A stretch of DNA of 64,000 nt from an uncultured Candidatus Competibacteraceae bacterium (GCA_964624635.1 CAZUXM010000001.1:25307-89306); one strand, 5' to 3'. Positions 13,381 through 52,425 are shown, counted from the first letter of the stretch. The notes: generated by a model not told the origin, from the sequence alone. Numbers and translations: made by a program.

Positions 13381-14265
13381 ATGAGAAGAGTTGATACTAA
13401 AAATGGAAAGAATATTGGAGATGGATTTCCTACGTACATTATTGCAGAAATTGGAATTAATCACAACGGTTCTATTGAAATTGCAAAAAAATTAATTGAT
13501 GCTGCCATCAAGTCGGGCTGTGATGCCGTAAAATTTCAAAAAAGAACTCCGGAAATTTGCGTACCAAGAGACCAATGGGATAAAGAAAGAGAAACTCCTT
13601 GGGGTAAAATGAGCTATATTGACTATAAAAAGAAAATAGAGTTCAGTGAAGATGAATATGGTATCATTGATAAATATTGCAAACAAAAAGGGATTGACTG
13701 GTTTGCTTCCTGTTGGGATGAACCATCAGTAGATTTTATTGAACAATTTGACCCTGTTATTTATAAAATGGCTTCTGCTTCGTTAACCGATTTTCCTCTG
13801 TTAACCAAAGTAAAATCTACAGGGAAGCCCATTATCATTTCTACAGGAATGAGCACAATGGAAGAGATTGATATGGCTATTAAACATGTTGGTTTAGACA
13901 ACCTGCTTATAGCTCATTCCACTTCTGCTTACCCTTGTGTACCTAATGAACTTAACTTACGAATGATTGATACATTACGTAATTTATACCCTAATAATCC
14001 TATTGGGTATTCAGGTCATGAAACCGGATTAGCTACCACTGAAGCTACAGTAGCGCTGGGTTCTAACTTTATTGAACGTCATTTTACCCTTGATAGAGCC
14101 ATGTGGGGAACTGATCATGCCGCCTCTGTTGAACCGGAAGGAATGAGCAGACTGGTTAGAAATATTCGTGATATTGAGATTGCTTTAGGTGACGGGGTTA
14201 AAAAAGTATATGAAAGTGAAAAAGAACCTATCAAACGATTGAGAAGAGTTCATCTCACCAAATAA
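13381..14265 (+). CDS. NeuB-family PEP-condensing synthase (sialic acid/KDN-phosphate synthase-like) lacking the C-terminal SAF domain
   Basis: IIAEIGINHNGS...AVKFQ, ISTGMS, SGHE.G, ERHFTLD and DH.AS motifs of N-acetylneuraminate synthase family TIM barrels. At 294 aa the protein ends before where a SAF/antifreeze-like domain would lie. Confidence 0.85.
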   Translation: MRRVDTKNGKNIGDGFPTYIIAEIGINHNGSIEIAKKLIDAAIKSGCDAVKFQKRTPEICVPRDQWDKERETPWGKMSYIDYKKKIEFSEDEYGIIDKYCKQKGIDWFASCWDEPSVDFIEQFDPVIYKMASASLTDFPLLTKVKSTGKPIIISTGMSTMEEIDMAIKHVGLDNLLIAHSTSAYPCVPNELNLRMIDTLRNLYPNNPIGYSGHETGLATTEATVALGSNFIERHFTLDRAMWGTDHAASVEPEGMSRLVRNIRDIEIALGDGVKKVYESEKEPIKRLRRVHLTK

Positions 14266-15257
14266 TGTTAGAGTCAATCAGTAGTTTTTTTGCATCTATT
14301 AACTGGTCAAATCCGGCTACCATTTCTTTTTTAATCATTTGTGGGGCTGCTTTGTCGTTTGCCTTTATATGGGAAAGAATTTTCCCCTACCAAAAGGGAT
14401 TACCTCTATTCAGAAAAGGCTGGTATCTTGATTTTGTATGGTATACCATTATACAAAGTTTTATTATGGGTACCGTTATTTTTTCTTTTATTATCTATCC
14501 TGCAAGAGAAGCTTTAGGTCTATCAGATGATCAAGGTTTGTTATCACACTGGCCTCTTTGGGCATTGGTATTGTTCTTCTTTGTTACCCATGATTTTTAC
14601 ATTTATTGGTTTCACCGATGGCAACATTACAATCCGTATTTATGGCGAACCCACGAAGCACATCATAGTGTAGAACAAGTAGATTTTGCGGCAGGAAGCA
14701 GATCACATATGGTTGAAATACTCATTAATCAAACCATTGAATTTGCTCCTATTATTTTATTACTCGATGCCAAAACTGCTATCATAGTTCAAAGCATTAA
14801 AGTTACCATTGATGCTGTATATGGACAGTTTATCCATTCTAATGTAAATGCCCGATTAGGATGGTTTGGTTATATATTTAACGGTCCTCGTTTACACCAG
14901 TGGCATCATGGGGATGAATTAGAAGTATACCATGCTAATTTTGCTACTAAACTTTCGTTATGGGATTATTTATTTAAAACTGCTTACAATCCTGATCGTA
15001 AGCCTCGTAAATATGGAGTTTGGTATCGATTCCCTAAAGATTGGTTCACTCAACACATATTTTCCTTTGTACGGTTTAATGTAGGTAAACTTGAAAATTC
15101 AGTTCCTCTTAAATGGTATTTTAATGCTAGAGTAAACGCAATCAAATGTTTTTTTAAGCTATGGAAAATCATATTTAAGAGACGTTTAAATAAAAAACGT
15201 TTAATTGACGGAGAAATATATGCTCCTAAACCAGAATTAGTTGAAATAGATTATTAG
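14265..15257 (+). CDS. fatty acid hydroxylase / sterol desaturase superfamily membrane di-iron oxidase
   Basis: Multiple TM segments plus three histidine boxes (HRWQH, HEAHH, HQWHH). Start overlaps the stop of the NeuB-like gene by 1 nt. Confidence 0.8.
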   Translation: MLESISSFFASINWSNPATISFLIICGAALSFAFIWERIFPYQKGLPLFRKGWYLDFVWYTIIQSFIMGTVIFSFIIYPAREALGLSDDQGLLSHWPLWALVLFFFVTHDFYIYWFHRWQHYNPYLWRTHEAHHSVEQVDFAAGSRSHMVEILINQTIEFAPIILLLDAKTAIIVQSIKVTIDAVYGQFIHSNVNARLGWFGYIFNGPRLHQWHHGDELEVYHANFATKLSLWDYLFKTAYNPDRKPRKYGVWYRFPKDWFTQHIFSFVRFNVGKLENSVPLKWYFNARVNAIKCFFKLWKIIFKRRLNKKRLIDGEIYAPKPELVEIDY

Positions 15258-24337: not shown

Positions 24338-25732
24338 CTATTTTTTCACCACAACCGCTTCGCCTTCTTTGCCAAAATAACTTATCCAACAAACATTCAA
24401 CCAACTACTCGGATTATCAGTAACTTCATAATACGAAATAGTTTTGGGTACACTTTTTATAGGAATAAACTCAATAGTATCATTGGTAGAATTCATTAAA
24501 GTATATCTGTTTTTCATTTCAAAGTCAAAATTTTTTGCTCTACCTGTAATCAAGTCCATACTGCAATAAAAGCCATTTTTTACAAACAGAAAGCAGCCAA
24601 ATGTTAATACAAATAATAAAACAACTGTTCGCTGCTTAGGAATTTGAATACTGGAAATCCTTTTTCCCCAATGAGAGAACCAAACCGATAAATTGAGAAA
24701 CCAGATAAAAATAAAAAACCAATAGGCTACATTAAGAGTCCTATGTTGTCCTAGTATCCCCGTTGCCCAATAGGCAGGGAATACACAAATAAATATTGTT
24801 AGAGGTAATAATAGAAGTGAAATATACCTGTGTAAATAAAATTTCTTTTGAAACAATGGAACTTTTATAACCAGTTTTCGATGGATAAAAACCCATGCAA
24901 ACGACATGATCCATAATGGTGGAGATAAAACAAACATTACAAAAAACCTGCCTGTTTGTGCCAATGAAAAGCCCAACGAATACCAAAACTGATGGCTCTG
25001 TGAAAACTGATTTTCTCTTACAGCGTTTCCCGGAGCCATTAATACCAAAGATGACCCCAAAATAGTGATCATTACCAGGAGAATGGTATACCTATAATGT
25101 TTAAGCTTAAATATTTGCACGATCATAAAAACCGTCATGTTAAACCCCACCAGTAAAAACATCAATACTTCGTTAAAGCCCATACAAAAGATGAGCACCG
25201 GAGTAAGAATCAATACATGGAGGAGTTTACTTTTAAACACGCATTGATTATGATAAAAACGATACAATAAAGTGATATAATATGTAACAAAAATGCACCC
25301 CAATAAATAGGTTACAGCACCCGTATACCAATACAATCCTTCGGATATGATGGGCATATTGTACATAAATAAAAGCACAAGCAAAATGGAACTCAATTGA
25401 ATTTCTCTTTTTTCAAGCACCTTGTTTAATAAGCTTCGAAGTAAAAAATCTATTGATAACCACATCAGTAATATCAATATCCATGGAATGAATTTGTAGA
25501 GTGTAAATGAATCCCATTTGAGGGGTCCTGATAAAACGAAAAAATTAGAAGTATATCTTCCACTCCAGGTTAAATACTGTTCCAACCAGCCTGAAAACAA
25601 ATCTTGTTTTTGAGAGATGAATCCATATACAAAATCATCTGCATTAGGATTGTTGAAAAAACAAATAAGCAAATAAGGTATCAATGCCAGAGGCAATAAC
25701 AGAATGAATATTTTTTTTAATTGGTTACTCAT
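24338..25732 (-). CDS. polytopic membrane protein, possible GT-C-type glycosyltransferase
   Basis: About 12 hydrophobic segments. Acidic NADDF motif in the first predicted external loop, as in GT-C enzymes. The family name is not recognised with certainty. Confidence 0.7.
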   Translation of the reverse strand: MSNQLKKIFILLLPLALIPYLLICFFNNPNADDFVYGFISQKQDLFSGWLEQYLTWSGRYTSNFFVLSGPLKWDSFTLYKFIPWILILLMWLSIDFLLRSLLNKVLEKREIQLSSILLVLLFMYNMPIISEGLYWYTGAVTYLLGCIFVTYYITLLYRFYHNQCVFKSKLLHVLILTPVLIFCMGFNEVLMFLLVGFNMTVFMIVQIFKLKHYRYTILLVMITILGSSLVLMAPGNAVRENQFSQSHQFWYSLGFSLAQTGRFFVMFVLSPPLWIMSFAWVFIHRKLVIKVPLFQKKFYLHRYISLLLLPLTIFICVFPAYWATGILGQHRTLNVAYWFFIFIWFLNLSVWFSHWGKRISSIQIPKQRTVVLLFVLTFGCFLFVKNGFYCSMDLITGRAKNFDFEMKNRYTLMNSTNDTIEFIPIKSVPKTISYYEVTDNPSSWLNVCWISYFGKEGEAVVVKK

Positions 25733-26958
25733 TCACACAAAAAGTCTTTGTTGTATTTGATTAATTTACTACAGGTTACATCTCTGATAATAATTGAAGC
25801 ATCATACATTAGTTTTACATTAGAAGGATATTTATGAGGTATTCCGTTAACATATTTCCTGTCATCTATATTTTTACTCTCAATAAAATAAGCTTTTGAA
25901 CTAAATTTTCCGTAAACCATTTCAAAGCTGGTTTTTTTGTTGTTCAAATCATTACATGATTCATATCCAAGTCCAAATTTACCATCCCGGGCATAGAACC
26001 CAATTACATATGATTCGTTAGAAATTTTTTCAGGTAAATAATATCCAATAGATGCTCCCCCATTCCATGTGGAAGGATTTCCTATTTTACTGATATGGGC
26101 ATTATGTGCCCAAACAATTATCTTTCTGTTAGTGTATAAAGTGTCAGAAATAAACTGAAGGTTATCTGTCATTATCTTGTCACGGGGATGATAGCTGATA
26201 TAATAGTTGGGGTTTTTAAGGTCATTACTGGAAGACAGTACTTGTAAGTTTGCTTCTATGGCCTTTCTGAATATCGTTTTTTTAATTTTATCAAGAGTTT
26301 GTAAAGCATCTATCTCATTCCATATTTTTTTATATTGTTTTGAAACCTCTATAGCTACAGAATCTAAATATGCCTTTTTAGTATAATCGTTATTCAAATA
26401 AGCTTTACTTTTAATGCTCCAAAAATTATATAACATGACACTATCAAGTTCGGAAAGTTTTTTTGATAATGAATAATTATTTAATACAATATTTATTTGA
26501 TCCGAATTCAAATATAAAGCCCCATAGTTAGGGTCTACTCCTGCTATGTCTATTTGGTTTTGCCTGATATAATCCATCATTTCACAATTCCCTTTTACCC
26601 TCCAAATACCCATTAAACTGTGAACCAGCATTCTCATGCCTGTTAAAGAATCTTTTACTAGATTTGTTAATCCACAGGCTGCTATGCCACTTTCAAAAAC
26701 CACTACATCAAACCCGTGCTTTTGATGTAAATATTTGATCATTCTAAATTTTAGTTGATTAAATTCATTAATCCCATGTTGACTTTCGCCCAAAAAAATA
26801 ATTCTTTTATTTTTAATTAAAGGAGATATAAATTCAAGATCTGTGAAGTCATCAGAGGAAGTGGATAAAATTTCCGAACCGGAAAGAATTTGTTTTTGTG
26901 CAGATATTCTTCCTGATATTAACAAATAAGAAAAGAATATCAATAAAATATATCTCAA
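25729..26958 (-). CDS. erythromycin esterase (Ere/ChaN-like) family protein, secreted
   Basis: Signal peptide. IIFLGESQHG and VWAHNAHI motifs characteristic of the erythromycin esterase fold. Stop overlaps the start of the downstream membrane-protein gene by 4 nt. Confidence 0.65.
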   Translation of the reverse strand: MRYILLIFFSYLLISGRISAQKQILSGSEILSTSSDDFTDLEFISPLIKNKRIIFLGESQHGINEFNQLKFRMIKYLHQKHGFDVVVFESGIAACGLTNLVKDSLTGMRMLVHSLMGIWRVKGNCEMMDYIRQNQIDIAGVDPNYGALYLNSDQINIVLNNYSLSKKLSELDSVMLYNFWSIKSKAYLNNDYTKKAYLDSVAIEVSKQYKKIWNEIDALQTLDKIKKTIFRKAIEANLQVLSSSNDLKNPNYYISYHPRDKIMTDNLQFISDTLYTNRKIIVWAHNAHISKIGNPSTWNGGASIGYYLPEKISNESYVIGFYARDGKFGLGYESCNDLNNKKTSFEMVYGKFSSKAYFIESKNIDDRKYVNGIPHKYPSNVKLMYDASIIIRDVTCSKLIKYNKDFLCE

Positions 26959-27523: not shown

Positions 27524-28228
27524 CTATTCTATGACTTGATATTTGCTCCACTGATGTGGTGTCCCTAAAAGTTCAACCTGCAATTGGTAAAAATAAAAAC
27601 CCATTCCCCGACTGGGAACATTATCATAATATTTACAGATTTTTTTATCCCAGGCTATTGAAATGAAAGTATCCTTAAACTGTTGGTATATAGAGTCTGA
27701 ATAAATGTCTTTATTAAATTCTATTGTATTATAACAACGGATAATCTGGATAAGTTCTGTTTTAGTTAAGTATAATACTTCCGTTTTCATACTTTCAGTA
27801 GCATGTTCAATTTGTCGATCAAAAATATTTCGAGTAATGGTTACTACTGAATCCATATTGGGTTTGGGTAATACATCGTATCTTTTTTTACTATTATAAA
27901 ACCAGGAGTTTGCACTTAATTTATAATCATACATCAGATTCAGATCAATTAAAAAAGAATCGCCATCTAGTAAATAGTACTTATTTATAGTTCCATGCGA
28001 ATTTTCTCTATTGATTAAAATCTCGACTGTATCATTTTTGATGATATAATTTCCTGTAAGTTCAGTGTTTCCATAATGGCCTGATGATGTTCTTTTACAA
28101 GTGCCATCTTTATAGAATTCAAAACTCCACGTTGTTCTAGCCCACTGACCTGAAAAAGTTTTTTCGAATGTTTGAGAAAACAAAGATGTACCAACAAAAA
28201 AAAGTAGAATTAAAACAAATATTTTCAT
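27524..28228 (-). CDS. hypothetical secreted protein (234 aa)
   Basis: Signal peptide MKIFVLILLFFVGTSLFSQ. No known motif. Confidence 0.6.
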   Translation of the reverse strand: MKIFVLILLFFVGTSLFSQTFEKTFSGQWARTTWSFEFYKDGTCKRTSSGHYGNTELTGNYIIKNDTVEILINRENSHGTINKYYLLDGDSFLIDLNLMYDYKLSANSWFYNSKKRYDVLPKPNMDSVVTITRNIFDRQIEHATESMKTEVLYLTKTELIQIIRCYNTIEFNKDIYSDSIYQQFKDTFISIAWDKKICKYYDNVPSRGMGFYFYQLQVELLGTPHQWSKYQVIE

Positions 28229-28230
28229 TT

Positions 28231-29487
28231 TTACGTCTTCTGTTCTTTCTTCTTAGCAGCAGGGAAAAGTACATTGTTTAATATCAAACGATATCCTGCT
28301 GAGTTAGGATGTAAGGAAAGATCAGTAGGCTCGTCTCCTACACGATGTTGGTAATCTTCAGGGTCATGACCACCGTAAAAGGTCCAGAACCCTTTACCAT
28401 AAGTACCATGGATATACCTTACTTCATTCGCCTGTTTATTTTCTCCCATAATCACCACATTACTCTTGATGAGTTTTTTATTGAATGCGGTAGTTTGACC
28501 TAAAAACCCTTTAATCACACTTAAATGATTTTGAGTCAACATGGTGGGTATCTCATCACTTTTAGCGGAGAATTCAAACAAAGTAAAAAAGTCAAACTTC
28601 TGTTGCATCTGTCTACTCGCGGTCATATCAATATTAGAATATTCATATTCTGATGCGTTGACACTGATGATAAAATCTTTGAACGCAAAACAGTTGTTAT
28701 AATTCAATTTACTTTGGGCCTGCGGATCCATGGGATCTCCGTCAAATGGAGTATCACAAATATCAATACCATCAGCAGCTAAAGAAATATCATAACTATC
28801 CGTGGCACTACACATAGCAAATAAATATCCTCCACCTGAAACGTAATCACGTATTTTTTTAGAAACAGCTCGTTTTAATTCAGATACTTTGGCGAATCCT
28901 AATTTTTTCGCCAATATTTCTGATGAACGAACTTGCTCCTGATACCAACTGGCATTTTTATAAGCACTCCAAAACTTTCCATATTGCCCTGTAAAGTCTT
29001 CATGATGTAAGTGCAGCCAATTGTAAGTGGGTAATAAACCACCAATTACTTCTTCATCATACAATGTATCATAAGGAATTTTGGAATAGGTAAGTACCAT
29101 GGTAACGGCATCATCCCAAGGTTGCATTCCCGGAGGAGAGTATACCGCAATCTTAGGGGCTTTCTCCAATTTCATGGGATTCTGATTTACATCCGGATCA
29201 GATAATTGAGTAATTAATGCGGTACTTTGAACATCAGTAATCAAATTATACGAAACATTTCGGGCCAACATGAGGTCTTCATATTCGCTACGATATTTGA
29301 ACATAAATGCTCCGCCTTTAAAATTGAGCATCCAATACATTTCATCATTGGCATTCAAAACTTCATACGCTACCCCATAGGCTCTCAAGTGATCTGTTTG
29401 AGTATCATCCATAGGGATAAAAACATAATTAGCCTGTACTGAACCCAGCGAAAAAACTATCAGAAGTAAGGTAATAATCTTCTTCAT
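28231..29487 (-). CDS. conserved secreted protein of unknown function
   Basis: Signal peptide from the ATG at 29487 (MKKIITLLLIVFSLGSVQA). Lacks the AsnB hallmarks (N-terminal Cys2, SGGxDS). I recall this family being auto-annotated as asparagine synthetase B. Confidence 0.65.
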   Translation of the reverse strand: MKKIITLLLIVFSLGSVQANYVFIPMDDTQTDHLRAYGVAYEVLNANDEMYWMLNFKGGAFMFKYRSEYEDLMLARNVSYNLITDVQSTALITQLSDPDVNQNPMKLEKAPKIAVYSPPGMQPWDDAVTMVLTYSKIPYDTLYDEEVIGGLLPTYNWLHLHHEDFTGQYGKFWSAYKNASWYQEQVRSSEILAKKLGFAKVSELKRAVSKKIRDYVSGGGYLFAMCSATDSYDISLAADGIDICDTPFDGDPMDPQAQSKLNYNNCFAFKDFIISVNASEYEYSNIDMTASRQMQQKFDFFTLFEFSAKSDEIPTMLTQNHLSVIKGFLGQTTAFNKKLIKSNVVIMGENKQANEVRYIHGTYGKGFWTFYGGHDPEDYQHRVGDEPTDLSLHPNSAGYRLILNNVLFPAAKKKEQKT

Positions 29488-29545
29488 ACGTCGAATATAC
29501 AACAAATATAACGGGATTAGCCGGGTTTTGTTTTAAGAAGGTTGC

Positions 29546-32459: not shown

Positions 32460-33266
32460 CTAATCTCCTGCATTCACATACTCAAAGTCACTGCCATTTT
32501 GCCTCCACAGTACAGCTATCACTGTAATATTTGAAATATTCCAAACAGGATTACGATAAATTCCTCTTCTTATTTTGAATGATGTAGAAGAGGTAACCGG
32601 AAGCGTATTAATTTGGTCTCCAATTCCACTAGGACCGGAAGAAGCCCTTAATACATGTTTATGTGAATGTGAACCGGAAGCACCTACCTGAGGAGAAATA
32701 ATATTATTTTCTACAACATATGCTACAGCAAAATAGGAAGAGGGATCTTCCACATAAAACTTTCCATATAAAGTAACAATAATACTGTCTGTCGTGGTTG
32801 AAAAATCTACACTTATTCCTCCATTTGCCGTTTCAGCAGCTTCATTTGAAATTGCATTTAAAATAGCTGACTGAGTTAACAATGCAGATTCTTCTCCTAC
32901 ACCAAAATCCGGAAACCCGGTTACAGAATCTGCAGTAGCTATATCAATAGATGCCGGACTAAATAACGTATCTGTACCATTGGGATGTGCTGTAATAAAA
33001 TATGTGTTCGCAGGGTTGGTAGCCTTTACTTGTTCCAGTAAATTAAGTCCAAAAGTTCCGCATGTATTGTTATCCGAATCGTTAAAATAAAAACAAACTA
33101 CCTTTTTGTTTTGTGAAGGATAAGCACAATTACCGTCACTTTTAGTTGCATTAGGATTGTAATTCGGGGAATTGGGATCCGTACACCCTTCAACTGCCGT
33201 ATCACAACTAAAGTTGATAATTATCAGAAAAATAGCCCCGATTAAAAACAAAACTCGATTTTTCAT
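32460..33266 (-). CDS. lipoprotein, possibly Omp28-related
   Basis: Lipobox INFSC, 268 aa. The Omp28 resemblance is only from size and N-terminal layout. Start overlaps the stop of the upstream flippase-like gene by 1 nt. Confidence 0.55.
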   Translation of the reverse strand: MKNRVLFLIGAIFLIIINFSCDTAVEGCTDPNSPNYNPNATKSDGNCAYPSQNKKVVCFYFNDSDNNTCGTFGLNLLEQVKATNPANTYFITAHPNGTDTLFSPASIDIATADSVTGFPDFGVGEESALLTQSAILNAISNEAAETANGGISVDFSTTTDSIIVTLYGKFYVEDPSSYFAVAYVVENNIISPQVGASGSHSHKHVLRASSGPSGIGDQINTLPVTSSTSFKIRRGIYRNPVWNISNITVIAVLWRQNGSDFEYVNAGD

Positions 33267-34489
33267 TACTTGATAAGTTTTATTTTTTTACTAATTTGAT
33301 CCTGTTCATACAATATAGTAACGAGAAACATAAAAATCCATTGCCCTAAAATGCAACAATAAAGCCCTCCAATTAATCCAAAACTATTGATAAAAAATAT
33401 ACATGACGTAATCATTGCTATAGCCACTCCCCCGGCACACCTCGATAATAATCCGATGTTATTTTTATTATTAAAGTAAATAACCAGTGGAGTATATAAG
33501 GTTGATGGAAACGCAAATAATAATCCGGCTGCTAAAAACGAAGGGGTTACATTCAACATAAAAACATGTATACAAAGCAGGTATGATGCAAATACAGCTG
33601 TTGAATTAACTATCGTACCAATCAATAAAACCCTCATACGAAGAGAATTATCTACTTTGATTTTTGTTCTTTTATCTCTGTTATGGTAATATTTGGTTAT
33701 GAACCCGGGTAAACTAATTACAAAAACCAGGAAATTCATATAGATTTGATATAAAGCTTTATCTGCAGCTTCAAATTTTGTATAAATAAAAAACCTGTCA
33801 ATAGTAAGTATCAAAATCGTTGAGAATGAATAAATGAAAAAATTATAGGTAACTAAATACATTTCAAGATTGATCCTTTCTACCTTTCCTTTAATAAATA
33901 CTTTAAAGTTGAGTATAAGGTGTATTACACTTTTTACTATTTCTGATAGTCCAATAGCAAAAATGAGATAGATGAAGGTCATTTCATCAAGCTTATAAAA
34001 ATAATAAGCTACGCCTACCCCCAATCCGGTAAGATTGGCAACGATTGGTTTCCAGTCGTTTTTTTCATAAACATATAAGGTTTCAAAAGAGTGATTGATA
34101 TATTTCCCTGCAAAGAGAAGCATATATGAAATACAAATAATTGGGTCGTAAGGATAAAATGCTAAAAAAACAAGGAAGATTAATAATAATGGTAATCTCG
34201 AATAAAAACTTTCGACAAACGAATCATATACTTTATTGGGAAATGAGGTAAATCGTTTTTGTAAATATTGGCTAGAGCCCCACGAAAGAATAATTGTAGC
34301 AAGGGAAGCAAAAAACCATACATCAACAGCTTTACCCCAAAGTTCAATATCAACAGTATAAATGGCTAATAGAGGCCATATAGGAGCAAACAAAGGTCCT
34401 GTAAATGTTCGTACCGCCTCAAGAAAAACAGAAACAAACTTCTTTTGCGAATATAAAGACCTGTCCTGAGTAAACTCCATAGTGAACAC
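33266..34489 (-). CDS. polytopic membrane protein, MOP/Wzx-like flippase candidate
   Basis: About 12 TM segments across ~400 aa with a composition typical of oligosaccharide flippases. Start is either GTG 34489 or ATG 34480, 3 nt after the methyltransferase stop. Confidence 0.6.
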   Translation of the reverse strand: MFTMEFTQDRSLYSQKKFVSVFLEAVRTFTGPLFAPIWPLLAIYTVDIELWGKAVDVWFFASLATIILSWGSSQYLQKRFTSFPNKVYDSFVESFYSRLPLLLIFLVFLAFYPYDPIICISYMLLFAGKYINHSFETLYVYEKNDWKPIVANLTGLGVGVAYYFYKLDEMTFIYLIFAIGLSEIVKSVIHLILNFKVFIKGKVERINLEMYLVTYNFFIYSFSTILILTIDRFFIYTKFEAADKALYQIYMNFLVFVISLPGFITKYYHNRDKRTKIKVDNSLRMRVLLIGTIVNSTAVFASYLLCIHVFMLNVTPSFLAAGLLFAFPSTLYTPLVIYFNNKNNIGLLSRCAGGVAIAMITSCIFFINSFGLIGGLYCCILGQWIFMFLVTILYEQDQISKKIKLIK

Positions 34490-34492
34490 AAG

Positions 34493-35170
34493 TTACAAAT
34501 TATCTTCCATACTAAAACACAGAATATGTGATTTTTCAAGCAGGTGACGATAAGTAGCCATCATTTTGGAGGTGAAGAAGTATTTTTGAGCAGTTTTTTT
34601 AATATAATCTATATCACAATCGCTGGAAAGAACCATATAAATGCAACCTTTATCACCTAACCTTGATACACATTGCTTAAAGAACCTGTCAAAATATTCC
34701 AATTCTTTACCTGCATACCATGCATAATCTTCAATACCTGAAGGTTCACCGGGATAAAAGGGCGGATTGTTAAGGATTATATCAAATGATTTTTTTTCAA
34801 CTGATTCAAACAAATCAGATTCAACAGCCGAAAGATGAACGCTATTATTTTTTGCATTCAATAAAGTGGTTGTTATTGCTAATGGATTAATATCACAACA
34901 ATATACCTGTGCCCCTTTTTTCTGAGCATAAATACTTACTGCACCGGATCCACATCCAACTTCCATCAGTTTTACTCCAGTTAGTTCAAGCTTACTTAAA
35001 AAACGGCACATTGACTTGGTACTAAAAAATAATGTTGGATGAAAAACACCCGAAGGAATATCCAGATGCATACCGAATAGCTTTGCTTTTCTTGGTTGCT
35101 GTAAATAATTTTTGGTTACAGGAACCAAAAATTTACTCAGGAGTCTCCTACCTACACTTCTTGTTTTCAT
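34493..35170 (-). CDS. class I SAM-dependent methyltransferase, 'small domain' NPPF type (HemK/RsmC-like)
   Basis: EVGCGSGAVS SAM motif I and ILNNPPFY motif IV. 4-nt overlap (ATGA) with the radical SAM gene. Confidence 0.8.
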   Translation of the reverse strand: MKTRSVGRRLLSKFLVPVTKNYLQQPRKAKLFGMHLDIPSGVFHPTLFFSTKSMCRFLSKLELTGVKLMEVGCGSGAVSIYAQKKGAQVYCCDINPLAITTTLLNAKNNSVHLSAVESDLFESVEKKSFDIILNNPPFYPGEPSGIEDYAWYAGKELEYFDRFFKQCVSRLGDKGCIYMVLSSDCDIDYIKKTAQKYFFTSKMMATYRHLLEKSHILCFSMEDNL

Positions 35171-36678
35171 TCACTATAAAAACCTTCAATTTCCGGTTGA
35201 CGGTATTTCCATATTTTTTGTAACACTTTTATTTCATATGGGGCTGAATAAGCCCCCAATTTATATCTGGCTGATGAAACAAGTTTAATGGTTTGCCTTT
35301 TTAATTTGCTCAGTCTAAGATCTGAAACTGTTGGATAATATCCATTTAAAACAGTTTCAAAGTTTTTGATTTTATCAATCATATATGGTTTTAACCACGG
35401 AGTCATAGGATTTTTTCTTAGATCGAAATTCGCCCATGTATCATTGATCCAATCATCCAGTTTTTCAGGGAACTTAAATCCTGTTGCTTTTACCTGTTCA
35501 TATAATTCTGATCCTTCTACAGGAACCGGACTATATACGTATATAATTATTTCTGCCAGGGGATTAATTGATTTTATCTCTTTTATGAATTGAATGTCTT
35601 CGTTGATTTGATTATTTACCTGTTGTTCGGTACCAACGGGTGTACCTAATACAAACGACATTTCAGGAATAATATCAAACTTGGCCATCCGTTCAGCAAA
35701 TCGTTTTATCTGCTCTCCGCTTTGAGTCCCGCCCTTATCCATCTGTTTTAAAATTTCATCATTACCTGTTTCAGCCCCCAGAAAAATCATTTTACAGCCT
35801 GCATCACGCATTATTTTCAGGCTATCGTCTTTATACTTATCAATGGTATCAATTCGGCCTTCACCCCACCATATCATATCATCATTTTTAATCAAATTCG
35901 AAAATTCCACCGTACGTTTTTCACTTACAAAAAAATTATTGTCATGAAACTCTATAGCATTACCTCCAAATTCGTTTTTGAGAAATAAAATATCAGAATA
36001 AATTTTTTGAGCCGATTTTCCTTTCCAACGTGCATTATATATAGGGACTACTGCACAAAAAGAACAAGTAAACGGGCACCCGAAACTACTATGATAAGCG
36101 ATAGTTTTTGTACCCAGATAAGTTTTACCTAAATAGTTTTTAATTGGGTAAAATTGGTTGAGTTTATGATAAGGGAAAGGGGGTAATTGGTCCTGATCAT
36201 AAATTCCATCCTTTTTAGTAAATACAAGTTCCTCGTTTTTCTTGAAAATAAGGTTGGGAATATCATCTAAATGAGAATCGTTCCATTCAATTTTTTGTAA
36301 CAATGCAGGAAAACAAACATCGCCGGGTCCGTTAATGATATAATCAACATATCCTGAATGAAGAACCGGTTTTGGCTGGTTAGAAGGGAAATAACCACCC
36401 CAAATAATCTTCACACCCGGATAGGTTTCTCTTATTTTTTTTGAAACTGGAATGGCTTGCTTAAGCTGGGGATCAGGCATGGCTGTTATTCCTATACAAA
36501 AAATCTTCTCTCTACTTATCAGATCCATGATTTTAGGTAATGGATCCTTTTCCAAGTTACCATCAACTATCCAATAATCGTATTTACCCTCAATACTGGC
36601 AGCCACCTGTAATACCGAATTAGGGATTCGTGGTTTTGAGTTGGCACTTCTTGGGTTAAATAATATGACTCCTGACAT
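35167..36678 (-). CDS. B12-binding-domain radical SAM enzyme
   Basis: N-terminal Rossmann-like B12-binding region (CIGITAM..., IIWGG). CPFTCSFC CxxxCxxC cluster encoded at 36055-36078. 503 aa. Confidence 0.9.
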   Translation of the reverse strand: MSGVILFNPRSANSKPRIPNSVLQVAASIEGKYDYWIVDGNLEKDPLPKIMDLISREKIFCIGITAMPDPQLKQAIPVSKKIRETYPGVKIIWGGYFPSNQPKPVLHSGYVDYIINGPGDVCFPALLQKIEWNDSHLDDIPNLIFKKNEELVFTKKDGIYDQDQLPPFPYHKLNQFYPIKNYLGKTYLGTKTIAYHSSFGCPFTCSFCAVVPIYNARWKGKSAQKIYSDILFLKNEFGGNAIEFHDNNFFVSEKRTVEFSNLIKNDDMIWWGEGRIDTIDKYKDDSLKIMRDAGCKMIFLGAETGNDEILKQMDKGGTQSGEQIKRFAERMAKFDIIPEMSFVLGTPVGTEQQVNNQINEDIQFIKEIKSINPLAEIIIYVYSPVPVEGSELYEQVKATGFKFPEKLDDWINDTWANFDLRKNPMTPWLKPYMIDKIKNFETVLNGYYPTVSDLRLSKLKRQTIKLVSSARYKLGAYSAPYEIKVLQKIWKYRQPEIEGFYSE

Positions 36679-36728
36679 TGGGTATTGAAGAATGATTATG
36701 CTGCTGATATCAGGTAAATATACAAAGT

Positions 36729-37202
36729 TTATACATCTTTGGTTTGATGAGGCTTCACCGACACCTTTTGTGAATCAGCTTTTTTCCTTTTCACCCCTCT
36801 AAATATTAAAACTACCAGCATAATAAGCGAAAATCCTACCAATAAAATACTTACCAATGGCTTATGATACAGCCACACAAACGAAATACACAACAACGAT
36901 ACAATGCTCCCGGTAAGAATAGCTCCTATATATATTCCGGCTCTTATCTCATTATAGGTAAGGGGTATTTTCATCATGAATAGCTTTGCTGCCGAAAATA
37001 TCCTGTATAAACAAAATACAATAAAAAAAATCGAACCTATACGAACCACCCAGTATAATAGTGGCTGTTCCCAACCATTCATTAATGGTTGATGCGCAAT
37101 TGCCTTGTTCTCGTTATACATCAATAATACGGGTCCCAATGGTAGTAATAATATCCCTGTGATGATTCTTAAAATCTGGTTTTTGGTCCTTCGGCTGAGC
37201 AT
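36729..37202 (-). CDS. small integral membrane protein (157 aa, ~4 TM)
   Basis: Hydrophobic ORF 50 nt upstream of the radical SAM gene on the same strand, with a basic C-terminal tail. Confidence 0.55.
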   Translation of the reverse strand: MLSRRTKNQILRIITGILLLPLGPVLLMYNENKAIAHQPLMNGWEQPLLYWVVRIGSIFFIVFCLYRIFSAAKLFMMKIPLTYNEIRAGIYIGAILTGSIVSLLCISFVWLYHKPLVSILLVGFSLIMLVVLIFRGVKRKKADSQKVSVKPHQTKDV

Positions 37203-37424: not shown

Positions 37425-37880
37425 ATGCGTATATTATTTACCTTAATCATTAGTATTTTTTGTATTGGCCAAAGTGTGGCAACAGCACAAATGGGTTTAA
37501 ACAGTATTTCGGTTGCTACTACCTTGGAAGGGAATGTGGCCTGGAGTGCTAATTATGACGGACATAACCGAAAAGGATATCTTGACAAACAATCTGTATC
37601 AGAAGGCATTTGCAACAAACCTTTGGAGAAAGATGTTTTAATCCCGGTTCAATCAACCAGCTATTTTCATACTCCTTCGGATGTATTATTTTTTACAGGT
37701 ACAGGGTACGATCATTTTTCAGTTACCATTAAAGATGAATCAGGAAATGTAGTAGCTAATGATCAATATTTTGAAAGTACCTCAATGGATATTTCATTCT
37801 TATCAAGCGGAACTTATACTATTGAAATAGTAGCAGAAAAAACGCAAGAAGTAAAAACAAAAAAGTTTACTAAAGAATAA
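37425..37880 (+). CDS. hypothetical secreted protein (151 aa)
   Basis: Signal peptide MRILFTLIISIFCIGQSVATAQ. The C-terminal part looks like an Ig/T9SS-CTD-like beta sandwich (GTYTIEIV). Confidence 0.55.
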   Translation: MRILFTLIISIFCIGQSVATAQMGLNSISVATTLEGNVAWSANYDGHNRKGYLDKQSVSEGICNKPLEKDVLIPVQSTSYFHTPSDVLFFTGTGYDHFSVTIKDESGNVVANDQYFESTSMDISFLSSGTYTIEIVAEKTQEVKTKKFTKE

Positions 37881-48356: not shown

Positions 48357-51300
48357 CTATTGTTTAATAATTCTTTTTGATACAACATTATTACCAAGCA
48401 TCAATTGAACAATATAAATTCCTCGTGCATATGCACTCATATCAATGGAAAATTGTGATGCAGAAATTTGTTTTATAAATACCAAACTTCCACGCATGTC
48501 ATATATCTTTATATTGTCAATTGTTTCACTGGCATTGATATAAACAAAATCTTTTGTTGGATTTGGATATAAATGGAAAGTATTATAAATATCTTCTATG
48601 CCTAAACCAACAATTACTATACATGAAGATGTATCAACACATGAATTTGTTCCTTCAATAATAACTGCATACTCACCGTCAACAATAGGAGTAAATGACT
48701 GACTATTGGCTCCCGAAATATTATTCAAATTAGTACAATCATACCATTGGTAATTGGCTCCTGATAAATTAGCTTGTATTGTAAAGCCTGATAAGTTTGT
48801 TGTTATATCAGGTAAAGTATTAAGAATGATAGAAACAGAATCAATATTTGAACAACCGTTCATATCAGTTCCTGTAACTATATATGTTGATGCTGACATT
48901 GGAATAAAAGAAATACCATCAGTAATACCGCCTGACCATGAATATGATTGTGCACCTGAACCATTTAAAATAATTGATAATCCTTGACAAATGGATGTGT
49001 CTGAAGGTGCAATTACTGATGGCAAACTGTTTACCACCACTTCTACACTATCAATATTCACACAATTGTTGGCATCTATACCATTCACAGTATAATACTG
49101 TGATAAAGTTGGAGTAAAAGGTGTATTGTCCAGCACCAAATCAGACCAAGTATAAGTATCAGCTCCTACGCCTGATAAAGTTACAGAAGACCCTATACAA
49201 ACAGAGGTGTCGTTCCCGGCAAAAACCAATGGCAATGAATGAACTATAACCGTAAATGTATCTGCGTTACTACATCCAAATGCGTTGGCAACTTCAAGTA
49301 TATAATCTGTATCTATCGATGGGTTTACCTCAATTGAATTTAATGTTGAAGCAGTGCTCCATTGATAGCTATTCGCCAAAGACCCTGTTAGAGTTGCTGT
49401 ATCACCATAACATATCTCATCATCTCCGGTAATTTCTGCATTTATATAATGAACAGTTAAATCCATAGAAGATGAAGTATCTACAGAACAACTTTTATAA
49501 ACCAAACATCTGAATTGTGCAGCATTAATTGCAGTATCTGCTACAATTATTAATGTATCATTGGTTACATTATTAAATAAAATACCGTTCGATATGCTAC
49601 TCCATCCTGATCCATCATTCATTTGCCATTGAAAACTTGTTGCACTGGATGCGTTTACATATAAACTTCCAGTATCGGAATAACAAAGTTCTAAATCAGG
49701 ACTTATTGATTCTATAGTGGTTAATCTTAATCTTTGCAGCTCATTATTATACGAAATAGCATAAGATGCCCCTAAATAGAGATAGTCATCTATTACATCT
49801 AAATAATTTGTATAACTACTACCAGCTCCTGAAACTAAGTTATCTACAAGATAGGTATTACAAGAATCGCCTTTGCTTGTCCATAATTCTGTTCCATGAA
49901 TCCCATCATTTGCTTCAAAAAATAAACGCCCATTAATATCTTTAAGTTTATTCGGAAATGATGACATTGTGCCAGTATAAATATCTTTTACTAATGAAAT
50001 TTGTCCATTCTTATATTTATAAAGCTCCTCGCCTACTAAACTATTATTCCCTTTAAAAAAGAGTGTATTACCACTTACTGTAAATAGATATGGGCTCAAC
50101 CCCCCGGTACCAACTGTATAGTCTGCCACCAATTGTGTTCCAATATTAGTACCATCACTTCTCCATAACTCGCTTCCTGTTGTCGGTTCATTTCCAAAAA
50201 AGAAGAGTGTATCATTAAATTCCGTTAAGTAATAAATTCCACTAGCTGCTCCCGGATTTACATCTTTTACTAAAAAAGTTCCTGGATCGGTCCCATCTGA
50301 CCTCCACAGTTCGATACCTTGTGTTCCATTATCAGCTCTGAAATAAAGTATATCATTTGAACTAATTAAGTCAACAGGATTTGATCCATTTGATCCGGAA
50401 TAAATATCTTTTACAAGCATGGTTCCTGCAAGTGCTCCATCTGTTTTCCACAATTCAACTCCGTTGGTTCCATTACTGGCAGTAAAAAATAATATCCCAT
50501 TGTTTACGTAAAAATTATTTATACTTGATCCGGATGCTCCGGGTCTAATATCTGCAACCATTATTGTACCTGCAACAGTACCATCTGTTTTCCATAATTC
50601 TGTTCCATTTACCCCATTGTTGGCTGCAAAATATAATTCGTTGTTATATATTATTTTTTGTTGATCTACCATTGAATGGCCTACACCTGAATAAATATCT
50701 GTTAACATATAGGTTCCAGCAGGTGTACCATCAGTTCTCCACAATTCCATACCAGAGGTAACATTGGTAGCTTCGAAATAAATGATTCCATTTAATTCTG
50801 TTAATGATGGGTTGTTTATACTACTTTGAGTTCCTGGCCAAATGTCTGCTAACATTTCTGTACCGGAATAAGTACCATCAGTCTTCCAAATTTCTCTACC
50901 ATGCACTCCATCCCATGCGATAAACACTATATTTCCATTTAATTCAACTCCTGCGTTTGGATCAGAAGCCCAAGACAATGTTGTATCCACTTCATCCATC
51001 AGGTATGTACCTCCAGTGGTTCCATCGGTTGCCCAAAGTTCTTTATCAACTCCATTATTTGCTGAAAAAAAAGCCTGATTACCCAATACAACAAAATCAT
51101 TTGGATAAGAATCATTGGTTGGATGAATATCATATAAAAGATAAGTACCTGCCGGTGTACCATCACTTCTCCATACTTCGGTTTCGTAGTAGGGAGCTGA
51201 ATTATTTTCCGCTGAAAAAATAACAACTCCATTTACTTCGTAAAAGCTACTATTAAATGATGTTCCATTTGTTCCCAGTGAAATGTCTTTCACTAAAACT

Positions 51301-52379
51301 GTACTGGCTGCCGTTCCATTACTTTTCCACAATTCCATTCCTGTAGCTATTGTATTGGCATTTAAGAACAGACCCAAACTGGTTCCCTTTAACCAGTTAA
51401 TTGAACTATGTGCAGCTCCCGGATTAATATCAACAACCAACGTGGTTCCTAAGGCAGTTCCGTCTGATTTCCACAATTCGTTTCCTGTTCCGGGGGTAGT
51501 TGCTGTAAAAAACAGCGTATCATTGTAGATAGTAAAATAATATGGAAAACTACTGGCAGACCCAGGATTAATATCTACCAACAAATTGGTACCAGCTAAA
51601 GTACCGTCTGACTTCCATAATTCATCGCCTGAAATACCATCATTTGCTAAAAAGTATAATTCATTATGATAAGAAATCAATCCTCGTGGATCAGAACTGC
51701 CTGGACCAGGGACAATATCTCTTACTATATATGTGCCCACTAATGTACCATCTGTTCTCCAAAGCTCATAACCCTGTGCTGATGTTTGGCTCCTAAAATA
51801 TAAAATACCATTATTAATAGTCGGAAAATCAATACTGGTTCCGCATGAGCCGGAACACAAATCCGCCACCATTACAGTCCCTGCTAATGTTCCATCTGAT
51901 TTCCATAATTCCGGACCATCAACTCCATTTGTTGCTCTGAAATAAATTTCATTGTTATATTCTATTAACAAGTCAACAGATGCATGTGCTGTACCAGGAT
52001 TAATATCCATAACCATTACTGTTCCCTCTTCCGTACCATCTGTCTTCCATAATTCTACTCCGTGTTCCGGTGTTTGAGCTCTAAAATAAACTATTCCACC
52101 AGCAACAATAAAATCAAAGGGAGAGGAAGATCCTGAACCGGGAACAATATCTTTTACCAATTTTGTACCTGTTGGAGTTCCATTGCTTTTCCATAACTCA
52201 TATCCGGTATAAGGACTATTGTAATATAAGTAAAACGTGCTGTCATTTACCTTTACTGATTGTCCAGCATCATTAAAATCCATTGGCAATTGGTTAATAT
52301 CTCTTACCAATTCAATTTGTTGGCTAAAACAGTTGATTGATAAGAAAAGAAAAGTGGTGATAGAAGAGAAGTATTTCAT
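48357..52379 (-). CDS. giant ELWxxDGT-repeat T9SS type A cargo protein
   Basis: Signal peptide from the ATG at 52379 (MKYFSSITTFLFLSINCFSQ). About 17 repeats of ~50 aa with the core ELW(K/R)(S/T)DGT..GT..V.DI.PG. Four Ig-like modules. C-terminal LYPNPTKDFVYI... sorting domain. Confidence 0.85.
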   Translation of the reverse strand: MKYFSSITTFLFLSINCFSQQIELVRDINQLPMDFNDAGQSVKVNDSTFYLYYNSPYTGYELWKSNGTPTGTKLVKDIVPGSGSSSPFDFIVAGGIVYFRAQTPEHGVELWKTDGTEEGTVMVMDINPGTAHASVDLLIEYNNEIYFRATNGVDGPELWKSDGTLAGTVMVADLCSGSCGTSIDFPTINNGILYFRSQTSAQGYELWRTDGTLVGTYIVRDIVPGPGSSDPRGLISYHNELYFLANDGISGDELWKSDGTLAGTNLLVDINPGSASSFPYYFTIYNDTLFFTATTPGTGNELWKSDGTALGTTLVVDINPGAAHSSINWLKGTSLGLFLNANTIATGMELWKSNGTAASTVLVKDISLGTNGTSFNSSFYEVNGVVIFSAENNSAPYYETEVWRSDGTPAGTYLLYDIHPTNDSYPNDFVVLGNQAFFSANNGVDKELWATDGTTGGTYLMDEVDTTLSWASDPNAGVELNGNIVFIAWDGVHGREIWKTDGTYSGTEMLADIWPGTQSSINNPSLTELNGIIYFEATNVTSGMELWRTDGTPAGTYMLTDIYSGVGHSMVDQQKIIYNNELYFAANNGVNGTELWKTDGTVAGTIMVADIRPGASGSSINNFYVNNGILFFTASNGTNGVELWKTDGALAGTMLVKDIYSGSNGSNPVDLISSNDILYFRADNGTQGIELWRSDGTDPGTFLVKDVNPGAASGIYYLTEFNDTLFFFGNEPTTGSELWRSDGTNIGTQLVADYTVGTGGLSPYLFTVSGNTLFFKGNNSLVGEELYKYKNGQISLVKDIYTGTMSSFPNKLKDINGRLFFEANDGIHGTELWTSKGDSCNTYLVDNLVSGAGSSYTNYLDVIDDYLYLGASYAISYNNELQRLRLTTIESISPDLELCYSDTGSLYVNASSATSFQWQMNDGSGWSSISNGILFNNVTNDTLIIVADTAINAAQFRCLVYKSCSVDTSSSMDLTVHYINAEITGDDEICYGDTATLTGSLANSYQWSTASTLNSIEVNPSIDTDYILEVANAFGCSNADTFTVIVHSLPLVFAGNDTSVCIGSSVTLSGVGADTYTWSDLVLDNTPFTPTLSQYYTVNGIDANNCVNIDSVEVVVNSLPSVIAPSDTSICQGLSIILNGSGAQSYSWSGGITDGISFIPMSASTYIVTGTDMNGCSNIDSVSIILNTLPDITTNLSGFTIQANLSGANYQWYDCTNLNNISGANSQSFTPIVDGEYAVIIEGTNSCVDTSSCIVIVGLGIEDIYNTFHLYPNPTKDFVYINASETIDNIKIYDMRGSLVFIKQISASQFSIDMSAYARGIYIVQLMLGNNVVSKRIIKQ

Positions 52380-52425
52380 AAGGCTTGTGTTAGCACACAA
52401 AGCTATTGAATTATATAACACTCAA

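Follow-up and report, generated by a model that had tools for sequence, protein, structure and literature searches.

The radical S-adenosylmethionine (SAM) enzymes HpnJ, BchE and OxsB, of the B12-dependent class, do not methylate their substrates (PMC9204698). In cystobactamid biosynthesis, the SAM methyltransferase CysF methylates a heteroatom and the cobalamin radical SAM enzyme CysS then iteratively methylates that carbon (PMC12846815). A review of the class contains neither the word polysaccharide nor the word glycan (PMC9204698), and our search of the literature for a link between B12-type radical SAM enzymes and Wzx, O-antigen, undecaprenyl or polysaccharide loci found none. Here we analyse a 64,000-nucleotide (nt) stretch of DNA ("the window") from an uncultured Candidatus Competibacteraceae bacterium (GCA_964624635.1, CAZUXM010000001.1:25307-89306). 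Five minus-strand genes of the window encode a radical SAM enzyme with a B12-binding domain (hereafter rSAM), a small-domain methyltransferase (MT), a Wzx-like flippase, a lipoprotein and a 157-amino acid (aa) membrane protein. An original prediction made from the sequence had described these genes as a coupled operon, led by the small membrane protein, for tailoring and exporting a lipid-linked glycan or membrane lipid. All five open reading frames (ORFs) were confirmed, and all are also called as genes on a 160-kb contig of an NCBI assembly; the interpretation as a whole is partly supported. The rSAM and MT genes form a widely conserved pair, which recurs among, or fused to, genes of glycan assembly. 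We see about an even chance that this pair tailors a sugar of a polyprenyl-linked surface glycan, with the divergent Wzx-like protein as flippase for the product.

The MT gene lies immediately downstream of the rSAM gene in 74 of the 80 loci compared. These loci (L001-L080) come from a scan with one genome per species and encode rSAMs that share 66-80% identity with that of the window. Most are from Chitinophagales, with the addition of three metagenome-assembled genomes (MAGs) labelled Flavobacteriales at 79-80% rSAM identity. Of 53 gaps measured between the two genes, 33 are no longer than 11 nt, and many of these are overlaps. In the window, the junction reads 'gtgaATGAaaac', a 4-nt ATGA overlap. 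The pair persists at 36-38% rSAM identity in two unrelated contigs, overlapping by 4 nt beside a GT1 glycosyltransferase (GT) gene in one (L088) and following three further B12-rSAM genes in the other (L090). Outside the window, the flippase, lipoprotein and 157-aa protein genes turn up in just the three closest genomes and three metagenome contigs, always in the order of the window. Even when a second, homologous family is counted in (c19, see below), a Wzx-like protein occurs in only about 10 of the 80 loci. Only the rSAM-MT pair is widely conserved, and the five genes are not one conserved unit. Thus the synteny check upheld one part of the predicted five-gene operon, the tight co-conservation of rSAM and MT across related loci, and did not extend it in general to the other three genes, two of which are confined to this lineage.

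The flippase and lipoprotein genes share one base of stop and start codons ('aagTAATGaaa'), and the stop/start overlaps involving the flippase and lipoprotein genes are retained in all close relatives. The MT stop codon TAA is followed by 3 nt and the GTG of the flippase gene, as had been predicted. However, all 16 flippase homologues in the database start at the ATG 12 nt past the MT stop, giving a protein of 404 aa, and for this reason the true gap may be 12 nt rather than 3. The 50-nt spacer between the 157-aa protein gene and the rSAM gene, like the two overlaps, could be read directly from the sequence.

The genes surrounding the pair in other genomes point to glycan assembly. In Chitinophagales the pair heads a cassette (L004-L080; e.g. 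L015:7001-11000) with one or two more B12-rSAM paralogues and, downstream of each, a class I methyltransferase. This cassette also has an rSAM-SPASM protein (c4), often a flavin-reductase-like protein, and a Pol-beta-type nucleotidyltransferase, with a sub-threshold match to NTP_transf_2 in 21 of 22 members. On either side of it lie GT4, GT2, GT9, Bac_transf, ABC-exporter, GNAT and polysaccharide-deacetylase genes. Four loci (L048, L050, L053, L065) have Wzz and Wzy_C genes as divergent neighbours, and a GT87-like gene and c19 precede the pair in other lineages. Membrane or outer-membrane proteins stand at the cassette ends: Omp28-like in the window, OMP_b-brl_2 (c23) and DUF5777 elsewhere. 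Sister rSAMs of about 40% identity show similar surroundings, one inside a Wzx/Wzy_C/Wzz/GT4/Bac_transf locus (L082), the other in a multi-rSAM cassette beside Bac_transf, GT4 and Wzy_C genes (L083). The contexts of two further loci (L081 and L098) are uninformative.

Domain fusions are the most telling evidence for the link to glycans. Among the top 150 rSAM representatives, to which the fusion survey was applied, two proteins (P0144 and P0149) are rSAM::methyltransferase fusions. A third (P0208; L094:8001-10178), present on three contigs, unites a B12-rSAM with a Bac_transf polyprenyl-phosphate sugar transferase domain (193.6 bits). Its locus holds GTs, a second B12-rSAM, heptose-type sugar-nucleotide genes and Wzy_C. 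A fourth (P0187; L095:5562-7880), located in another glycan locus, is an MT::GT1::B12-rSAM fusion. The Bac_transf fusion hints concretely at the substrate, a polyprenyl-phosphate-linked sugar.

The flippase gene adds a second line of argument. Neither the window protein, nor its 16 family members, nor five remote homologues match any Pfam or NCBIfam model, including the Polysacc_synt-type hidden Markov models (HMMs), even at E≤10. A profile search of the PDB sequences with the family likewise returned nothing. The family is tiny, comprising 16 full-length sequences that are all at least 72% identical. A profile search for a wider family added only two remote members (P0290 and P0292), and a metagenome scan added three close loci. 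A first AlphaFold2 model, built from the 16 near-identical sequences, had a pLDDT of 52.8 and gave no significant match in the fold search; it was discarded. The second model, with P0290 and P0292 included, reached a pLDDT of 84.0 and a pTM of 0.82. In a Foldseek search of the PDB with this model, the top five matches are all Escherichia coli lipid III flippase WzxE (E-values from 4.1e-5 to 2e-4, TM-scores 0.56-0.65, about 420 aligned columns). The best of them has an E-value of 4.1e-5 and a TM-score of 0.64 over the full length. The top 50 matches all belong to the MOP superfamily, with MATE and MurJ ranking after WzxE. The modelled fold is thus that of the MOP superfamily (two bundles of six transmembrane helices), with Wzx nearest. 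The predicted Wzx-like label, which has no HMM behind it, is in this way borne out by a confident structure model.

Profile comparisons carry this relationship over to other loci. By hhalign, the flippase gives a probability below 1% against single Wzx or Wzy sequences and of only 14.8% against a four-sequence Wzx profile, the latter alignment being colinear over 333 columns. The comparison with c19 shows the two families to be homologous (probability 96.6%, E-value 6.8e-10, 349 columns). In five loci (L016, L023, L033, L036, L079) c19 is the direct upstream neighbour of the rSAM gene, and it is nearby in two more (L048, L065), where it occurs together with Wzy_C and Wzz genes. Therefore the link between a flippase of this type and the rSAM-MT pair recurs elsewhere in a different arrangement.

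The rSAM itself has the features predicted for it. Its N-terminal domain matches the B12-binding family PF02310 (43.1 bits, cut-off 32.1; residues 22-126) and its core matches PF04055 (42.3 bits; residues 198-353). The [4Fe-4S] motif CX3CX2C appears as CPFTCSFC, and CPF.C.FC is kept in 80 of 80 orthologues. The enzyme thus combines the two hallmarks of class B radical SAM enzymes, the Rossmann-type B12-binding domain and the CX3CX2C core. Compared with the curated NCBIfam equivalogs of B12-type radical SAM enzymes (BchE, HpnJ, PhpK, ApyD, HpnR, BzaD, AprD4, the methyl-coenzyme M reductase (MCR) glutamine C-methyltransferase and others), it reaches no cut-off. The best scores are with BchE (107.4, cut-off 481), HpnJ (104.5, cut-off 577.6) and PhpK (93.9, cut-off 600). 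The best solved relative is AprD4 (E-value 1.3e-9), for which the family score is 51.5 against a cut-off of 500. On HMM scores, the rSAM is outside every characterised family, in agreement with the earlier failure to match the system to a characterised pathway. More than 5,600 relatives at E≤1e-10 are present among the candidates examined, with about 1,000 representatives at E≤1e-30, and soil and freshwater Bacteroidota carry the family in abundance.

The identity of these best matches bears on a different proposal, in which the pair would tailor the head group of a membrane lipid or glycolipid, resembling a hopanoid, an aminolipid or moenomycin, and the MOP protein would move the lipid across the inner membrane. 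HpnJ, HpnR and a ladderane-lipid B12-rSAM are among the best family matches of the rSAM and its paralogues. Hopanoids and the phosphoglycolipid moenomycin are substrates of known B12-type radical SAM enzymes (PMC9204698), and the recurrence of membrane and outer-membrane proteins at the cassette ends would also suit a lipid. However, all the lipid-family scores are four- to six-fold under their cut-offs; squalene/hopene cyclase, acyltransferase or other lipid-synthesis genes were seen in no locus; and the fusion partners are glycan enzymes. We give a lipid substrate only a small probability.

The MT shows the MTS small domain PF05175 (64.7 bits) and the motif LNNPPFYP, an example of the (N/D)PP(Y/F) motif concerned with the substrate amino group, so that the prediction of an NPPF small-domain methyltransferase holds. 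NPP[YF] is kept in 52 of 53 MT orthologues. The reaction suggested by this motif is methylation of a nitrogen in an amino or amide group. The protein scores 84.3 bits on the HemK2/MTQ2 model TIGR00537, just under the cut-off of 87, and 111 on NF011529, short of the cut-off of 162. Its best PDB match is N6AMT1/HemK2 (E-value 6e-14), with GenN and the apramycin N-methyltransferase lower in the list.

Those HemK2 matches raise the possibility that rSAM and MT have as their target a core-machinery protein or RNA, such as a translation factor or ribosomal protein, the linkage with the flippase and lipoprotein genes being incidental packing. The rSAM is far more conserved than the MT (median identity to the window proteins 68.6% and 36.8%, respectively), which is unusual and would fit such a target. 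So would the genes around the operon in the window, which are housekeeping or unrelated (DnaB, a thioesterase, a trypsin-like protease, a porin, shikimate-pathway genes). Protein methylation by B12-type radical SAM enzymes is established, for example in the case of the glutamine C-methyltransferase of MCR (PMC9401015). However, the rSAM family is patchy and mainly found in Chitinophagales, not universal; it has multiplied into cassettes of two to four paralogues and is fused to Bac_transf and GT domains. The linkage of homologous flippases to the rSAM in two different positions, and the preservation in all close relatives of the overlaps described above, are also hard to attribute to incidental packing. 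We therefore regard a core-machinery target as highly unlikely. With respect to the release-factor GGQ glutamine in particular, the genomic context appears to count against it as the MT substrate, short of excluding it.

Several observations weigh against glycan tailoring as we propose it. In the window, no glycosyltransferase or sugar-nucleotide gene adjoins the operon, and the flippase gene has no Wzy, Wzz or GT neighbour. We found no paper or experiment on this rSAM family, and no curated family or solved structure covers it. The nearest characterised relatives of the MT are protein glutamine methyltransferases. AprD4 has a B12-type domain and is not known to use cobalamin or to methylate; its example indicates that such a domain is no proof of cobalamin use. 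MATE-type small-molecule exporters match the flippase model almost equally well (E-value 8e-4 versus 4e-5). Glycan genes are present in 48 of the 55 long loci, a count that has no background control and is not independent, being drawn mostly from one order (Chitinophagales). Glycan genes are, moreover, common in Bacteroidota. Because of this common occurrence and of the phylogenetic clustering of the loci, the raw count is weak alone, and the argument for glycans is carried by the differing gene arrangements and the fusions. Two loci (L096/L097) have no GT within 8 kb. They contain three B12-rSAMs, methyltransferases, a further rSAM, an amidohydrolase, NTP_transf_5 and an ABC exporter, and look more like a small-molecule or peptide cluster.

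These two loci lead to the proposal that the pair belongs to a small-molecule pathway, possibly one resembling those of RiPPs (peptides made by the ribosome and modified after translation). Radical C-methylation and N-methylation would then be performed on that product, the MOP protein would be a MATE-like exporter, and the glycan genes would be mere neighbours. The proteusins offer a precedent for radical C-methylation plus N-methylation. Multi-rSAM cassettes with rSAM-SPASM (c4), amidohydrolase, NTP_transf_5 or Pol-beta nucleotidyltransferase and ABC exporter genes would suit this proposal, as would an ScmC/HPr-kinase-like neighbour in L083. The rSAM also matches the RiPP families ApyD and rSAM_ocin_1 at 73-88 bits, scores that are, however, no better than those for BchE, HpnJ or PhpK. 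Against a peptide product, the window operon offers no space for a precursor peptide gene (its junctions measure -4, +3 or +12, and -1 nt), and no protease, cyclase or leader-recognition gene was seen. The Bac_transf and GT1 fusions and the position of cassettes between GTs are hard to account for, and although MATE structures fit the flippase model nearly as well, the five best structural matches are WzxE. A small-molecule or RiPP-like pathway is, in our judgement, quite unlikely.

Returning to the surface glycan, we infer its tailoring by association, and the predicted scheme would be as follows. The core is a translationally coupled module of two enzymes, a class-B-type radical SAM enzyme and an NPPF methyltransferase of amino or amide nitrogens, joined in this lineage to a divergent Wzx-type flippase and an Omp28-family outer-membrane lipoprotein. 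The target would be a sugar on a polyprenyl-phosphate-linked intermediate of a surface glycan, of the lipopolysaccharide (LPS)/O-antigen or exopolysaccharide (EPS) type, at the cytoplasmic face of the inner membrane. The MT would methylate a nitrogen. The rSAM, presumably with cobalamin, would carry out radical C-H functionalisation, most probably C-methylation; alternatively, it might rearrange or dehydrate the substrate without methyl transfer. It could also extend the methyl installed by the MT, as in the relay from CysF to CysS. Once modified, the lipid-linked unit would be moved to the periplasmic face by the Wzx-like protein acting as flippase. The lipoprotein and the 157-aa protein may or may not have a role in these steps. 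As for the predicted tailoring and export of a lipid-linked glycan, it gains from the context of the clade among glycan-assembly genes and from the MOP/Wzx fold; the link remains one of association, and some cassettes look small-molecule-like.

A broader version of this scheme is also conceivable, in which a large, unstudied clade of cobalamin-type rSAMs, obligately paired with, or fused to, methyltransferases, puts C-alkyl or extended N-alkyl groups on polyprenyl-linked surface-glycan sugars, in company with a Wzx lineage beyond the reach of HMMs. We think this generalisation rather unlikely. The components belong to well-known types: a class-B-type rSAM, an NPPY methyltransferase, Wzx and an Omp28-family protein. 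If the proposal is true, the radical chemistry would be of a kind so far undescribed for LPS, EPS or capsule biosynthesis, and B12-type radical SAM enzymes would constitute a recurrent, uncharacterised tailoring class for bacterial surface glycans. The flippase illustrates that a Wzx-fold protein can evade all sequence profiles, which is relevant to the annotation of glycan pathways. Several cultured carriers of the rSAM family exist for genetics, for example Niastella soli, Niastella populi, Longitalea arenae and Flaviaesturariibacter.

The features of the operon are listed in Table 1.

Table 1. Coordinates of the five genes and two spacer elements in the window
Feature	Position	Strand	Remarks
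B12-binding-domain radical SAM enzyme (rSAM), 503 aa	35167..36678	-	PF02310, PF04055, CPFTCSFC
HemK2/MTQ2-like small-domain methyltransferase (MT), NPPF motif, 225 aa	34493..35170	-	MTS PF05175
Divergent Wzx-type MOP-superfamily flippase (predicted fold)	33266..34489	-	407 aa from GTG; more likely 404 aa from ATG at 34480
Omp28-family lipoprotein, 268 aa, lineage-specific accessory gene	32460..33266	-	PF11551
157-aa four-transmembrane protein, lineage-specific	36729..37202	-	four hydrophobic helices
GTATATTTAC box	36714..36723	-	invariant among relatives; candidate Bacteroidota -7 promoter element
10-nt palindrome ctgatatcag	36704..36713	.	common in window, unconserved; judged no feature

The spacer upstream of the rSAM gene bears on which gene leads the operon. 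Directly beside the palindrome, and 35 nt upstream of where the rSAM gene starts, is the GTATATTTAC box. It is identical in five spacers (the window, L001, L002, L003 and L091), whereas the rest of the spacer varies. We take this box to resemble the Bacteroidota -7 promoter consensus TAnnTTTG. Hairpin-rich inserts, possibly terminators or repeat elements, are found between the 157-aa protein gene and the rSAM gene in two relatives (L001:1760-1850 and L091:3700-3790); there is none in the window. The conservation of the box, together with these inserts, suggests that the rSAM, MT, flippase and lipoprotein genes have their own promoter at the GTATATTTAC box, and the 157-aa protein gene may be a separate transcription unit instead of the operon leader for which it had been taken. 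A sigma-70 scan gave fewer promoter-like sites than shuffled sequences, the model being not informative for Bacteroidota, and the terminator-like matches in the scan fall inside coding sequence. The palindrome ctgatatcag, to which the original prediction had drawn attention, does exist in the spacer but is not meaningful. Perfect palindromes of 10 nt occur 77 times in the window (1.2 per kb), this one included, and it is missing from the equivalent spacer in four relatives. As an operator it was ruled out, being too common and not conserved. An Rfam scan of the whole window returned no RNA family, including no cobalamin or other riboswitch.

The lipoprotein matches Omp28 (PF11551) with 45.7 bits, above the cut-off of 34.9, and scores 19 on NCBIfam NF033782, below the cut-off of 150. 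Its signal peptide, read by eye, ends at the lipobox Cys21, MKNRVLFLIGAIFLIIINFSC. Residues 21-47 form a Cys-rich stretch after the lipobox cysteine, CDTAVEGCTDPNSPNYNPNATKSDGNC. For the 157-aa protein we found only a sub-threshold similarity to TMEM43 (22.8 bits, threshold 23.3). Both proteins are confined to relatives with about 79-80% rSAM identity, including L001-L003 and L091. In these four, the 157-aa protein is 39-46% identical to that of the window, and the lipoprotein gene always overlaps or abuts the flippase gene. A comparison by hhalign of the two proteins with all gene clusters of the 80 loci revealed no remote homologues.

The operon shows no compositional signal of horizontal transfer, its G+C content (0.33-0.34) being the same as that of its flanks. 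Divergent from the 157-aa protein gene, a gene for a small secreted protein (37425-37880, +) is kept beside the cluster in L001, L003 and L091; its product gives a sub-threshold score for a type IX secretion C-terminal sorting domain (24.9 bits, cut-off 27). Elsewhere in the window, a NeuB-family (nonulosonic-acid-synthase-like) gene and a fatty-acid-hydroxylase-family gene have one base in common (13381-15257, +), an unusual pairing. A DUF6056 membrane protein gene overlaps an erythromycin-esterase-family gene by 4 nt (24338-26958, -). Two neighbouring genes of 234 and 424 aa (27524-29505, -) have no Pfam family, the 424-aa product carrying a signal peptide. Finally, two very long ORFs (1354 aa and 1935 aa) are located at 48357-52421 (-) and 58177-63984 (-).

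Among known systems, the tailoring of gentamicin and apramycin (GenK/GenD1, AprD4, GenN and the apramycin N-methyltransferase) resembles the proposed module in applying a radical SAM enzyme with a B12-type domain and a small SAM N-methyltransferase to one sugar. Remote relatives of both window enzymes (AprD4 for the rSAM; GenN and the apramycin N-methyltransferase for the MT) act there on aminosugars. Unlike the present locus, these are antibiotic pathways of actinomycetes, whose substrates are soluble pseudo-oligosaccharides and which involve neither a polyprenyl carrier nor Wzx; the sequences are remotely similar, and the window MT is nearer to HemK2 than to GenN. HemK2/MTQ2/N6AMT1 shares with the MT a similar size and the MTS fold, and provides its best family and PDB matches. 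It differs in having NPPY where the window protein has NPPF, in the family cut-off that the MT does not attain, and in context, since the MT gene is coupled to an rSAM gene rather than standing alone and its genomic surroundings suggest a glycan target, not one in translation. CysF/CysS supplies a rationale for the rSAM-MT pairs and fusions seen here, as a mechanistic analogy only, its own reaction being an O-methylation on an aromatic acid bound to a nonribosomal peptide synthetase. The HpnI/HpnK/HpnJ pathway to the hopanoid cyclitol ether likewise brings a B12-type radical SAM enzyme to a lipid-linked aminosugar, and HpnJ is the second-best NCBIfam match of the rSAM; however, the rSAM is far under the HpnJ cut-off and there are no hopanoid genes in the loci examined. 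The Wzx/Wzy pathway, represented by E. coli WzxE, is unlike the window in that the 404-aa protein has no Wzx HMM or PDB sequence match and has no Wzy, Wzz or GT genes beside it. It is alike in the predicted fold of that protein and in the co-occurrence of its homologues with Wzy_C and Wzz.

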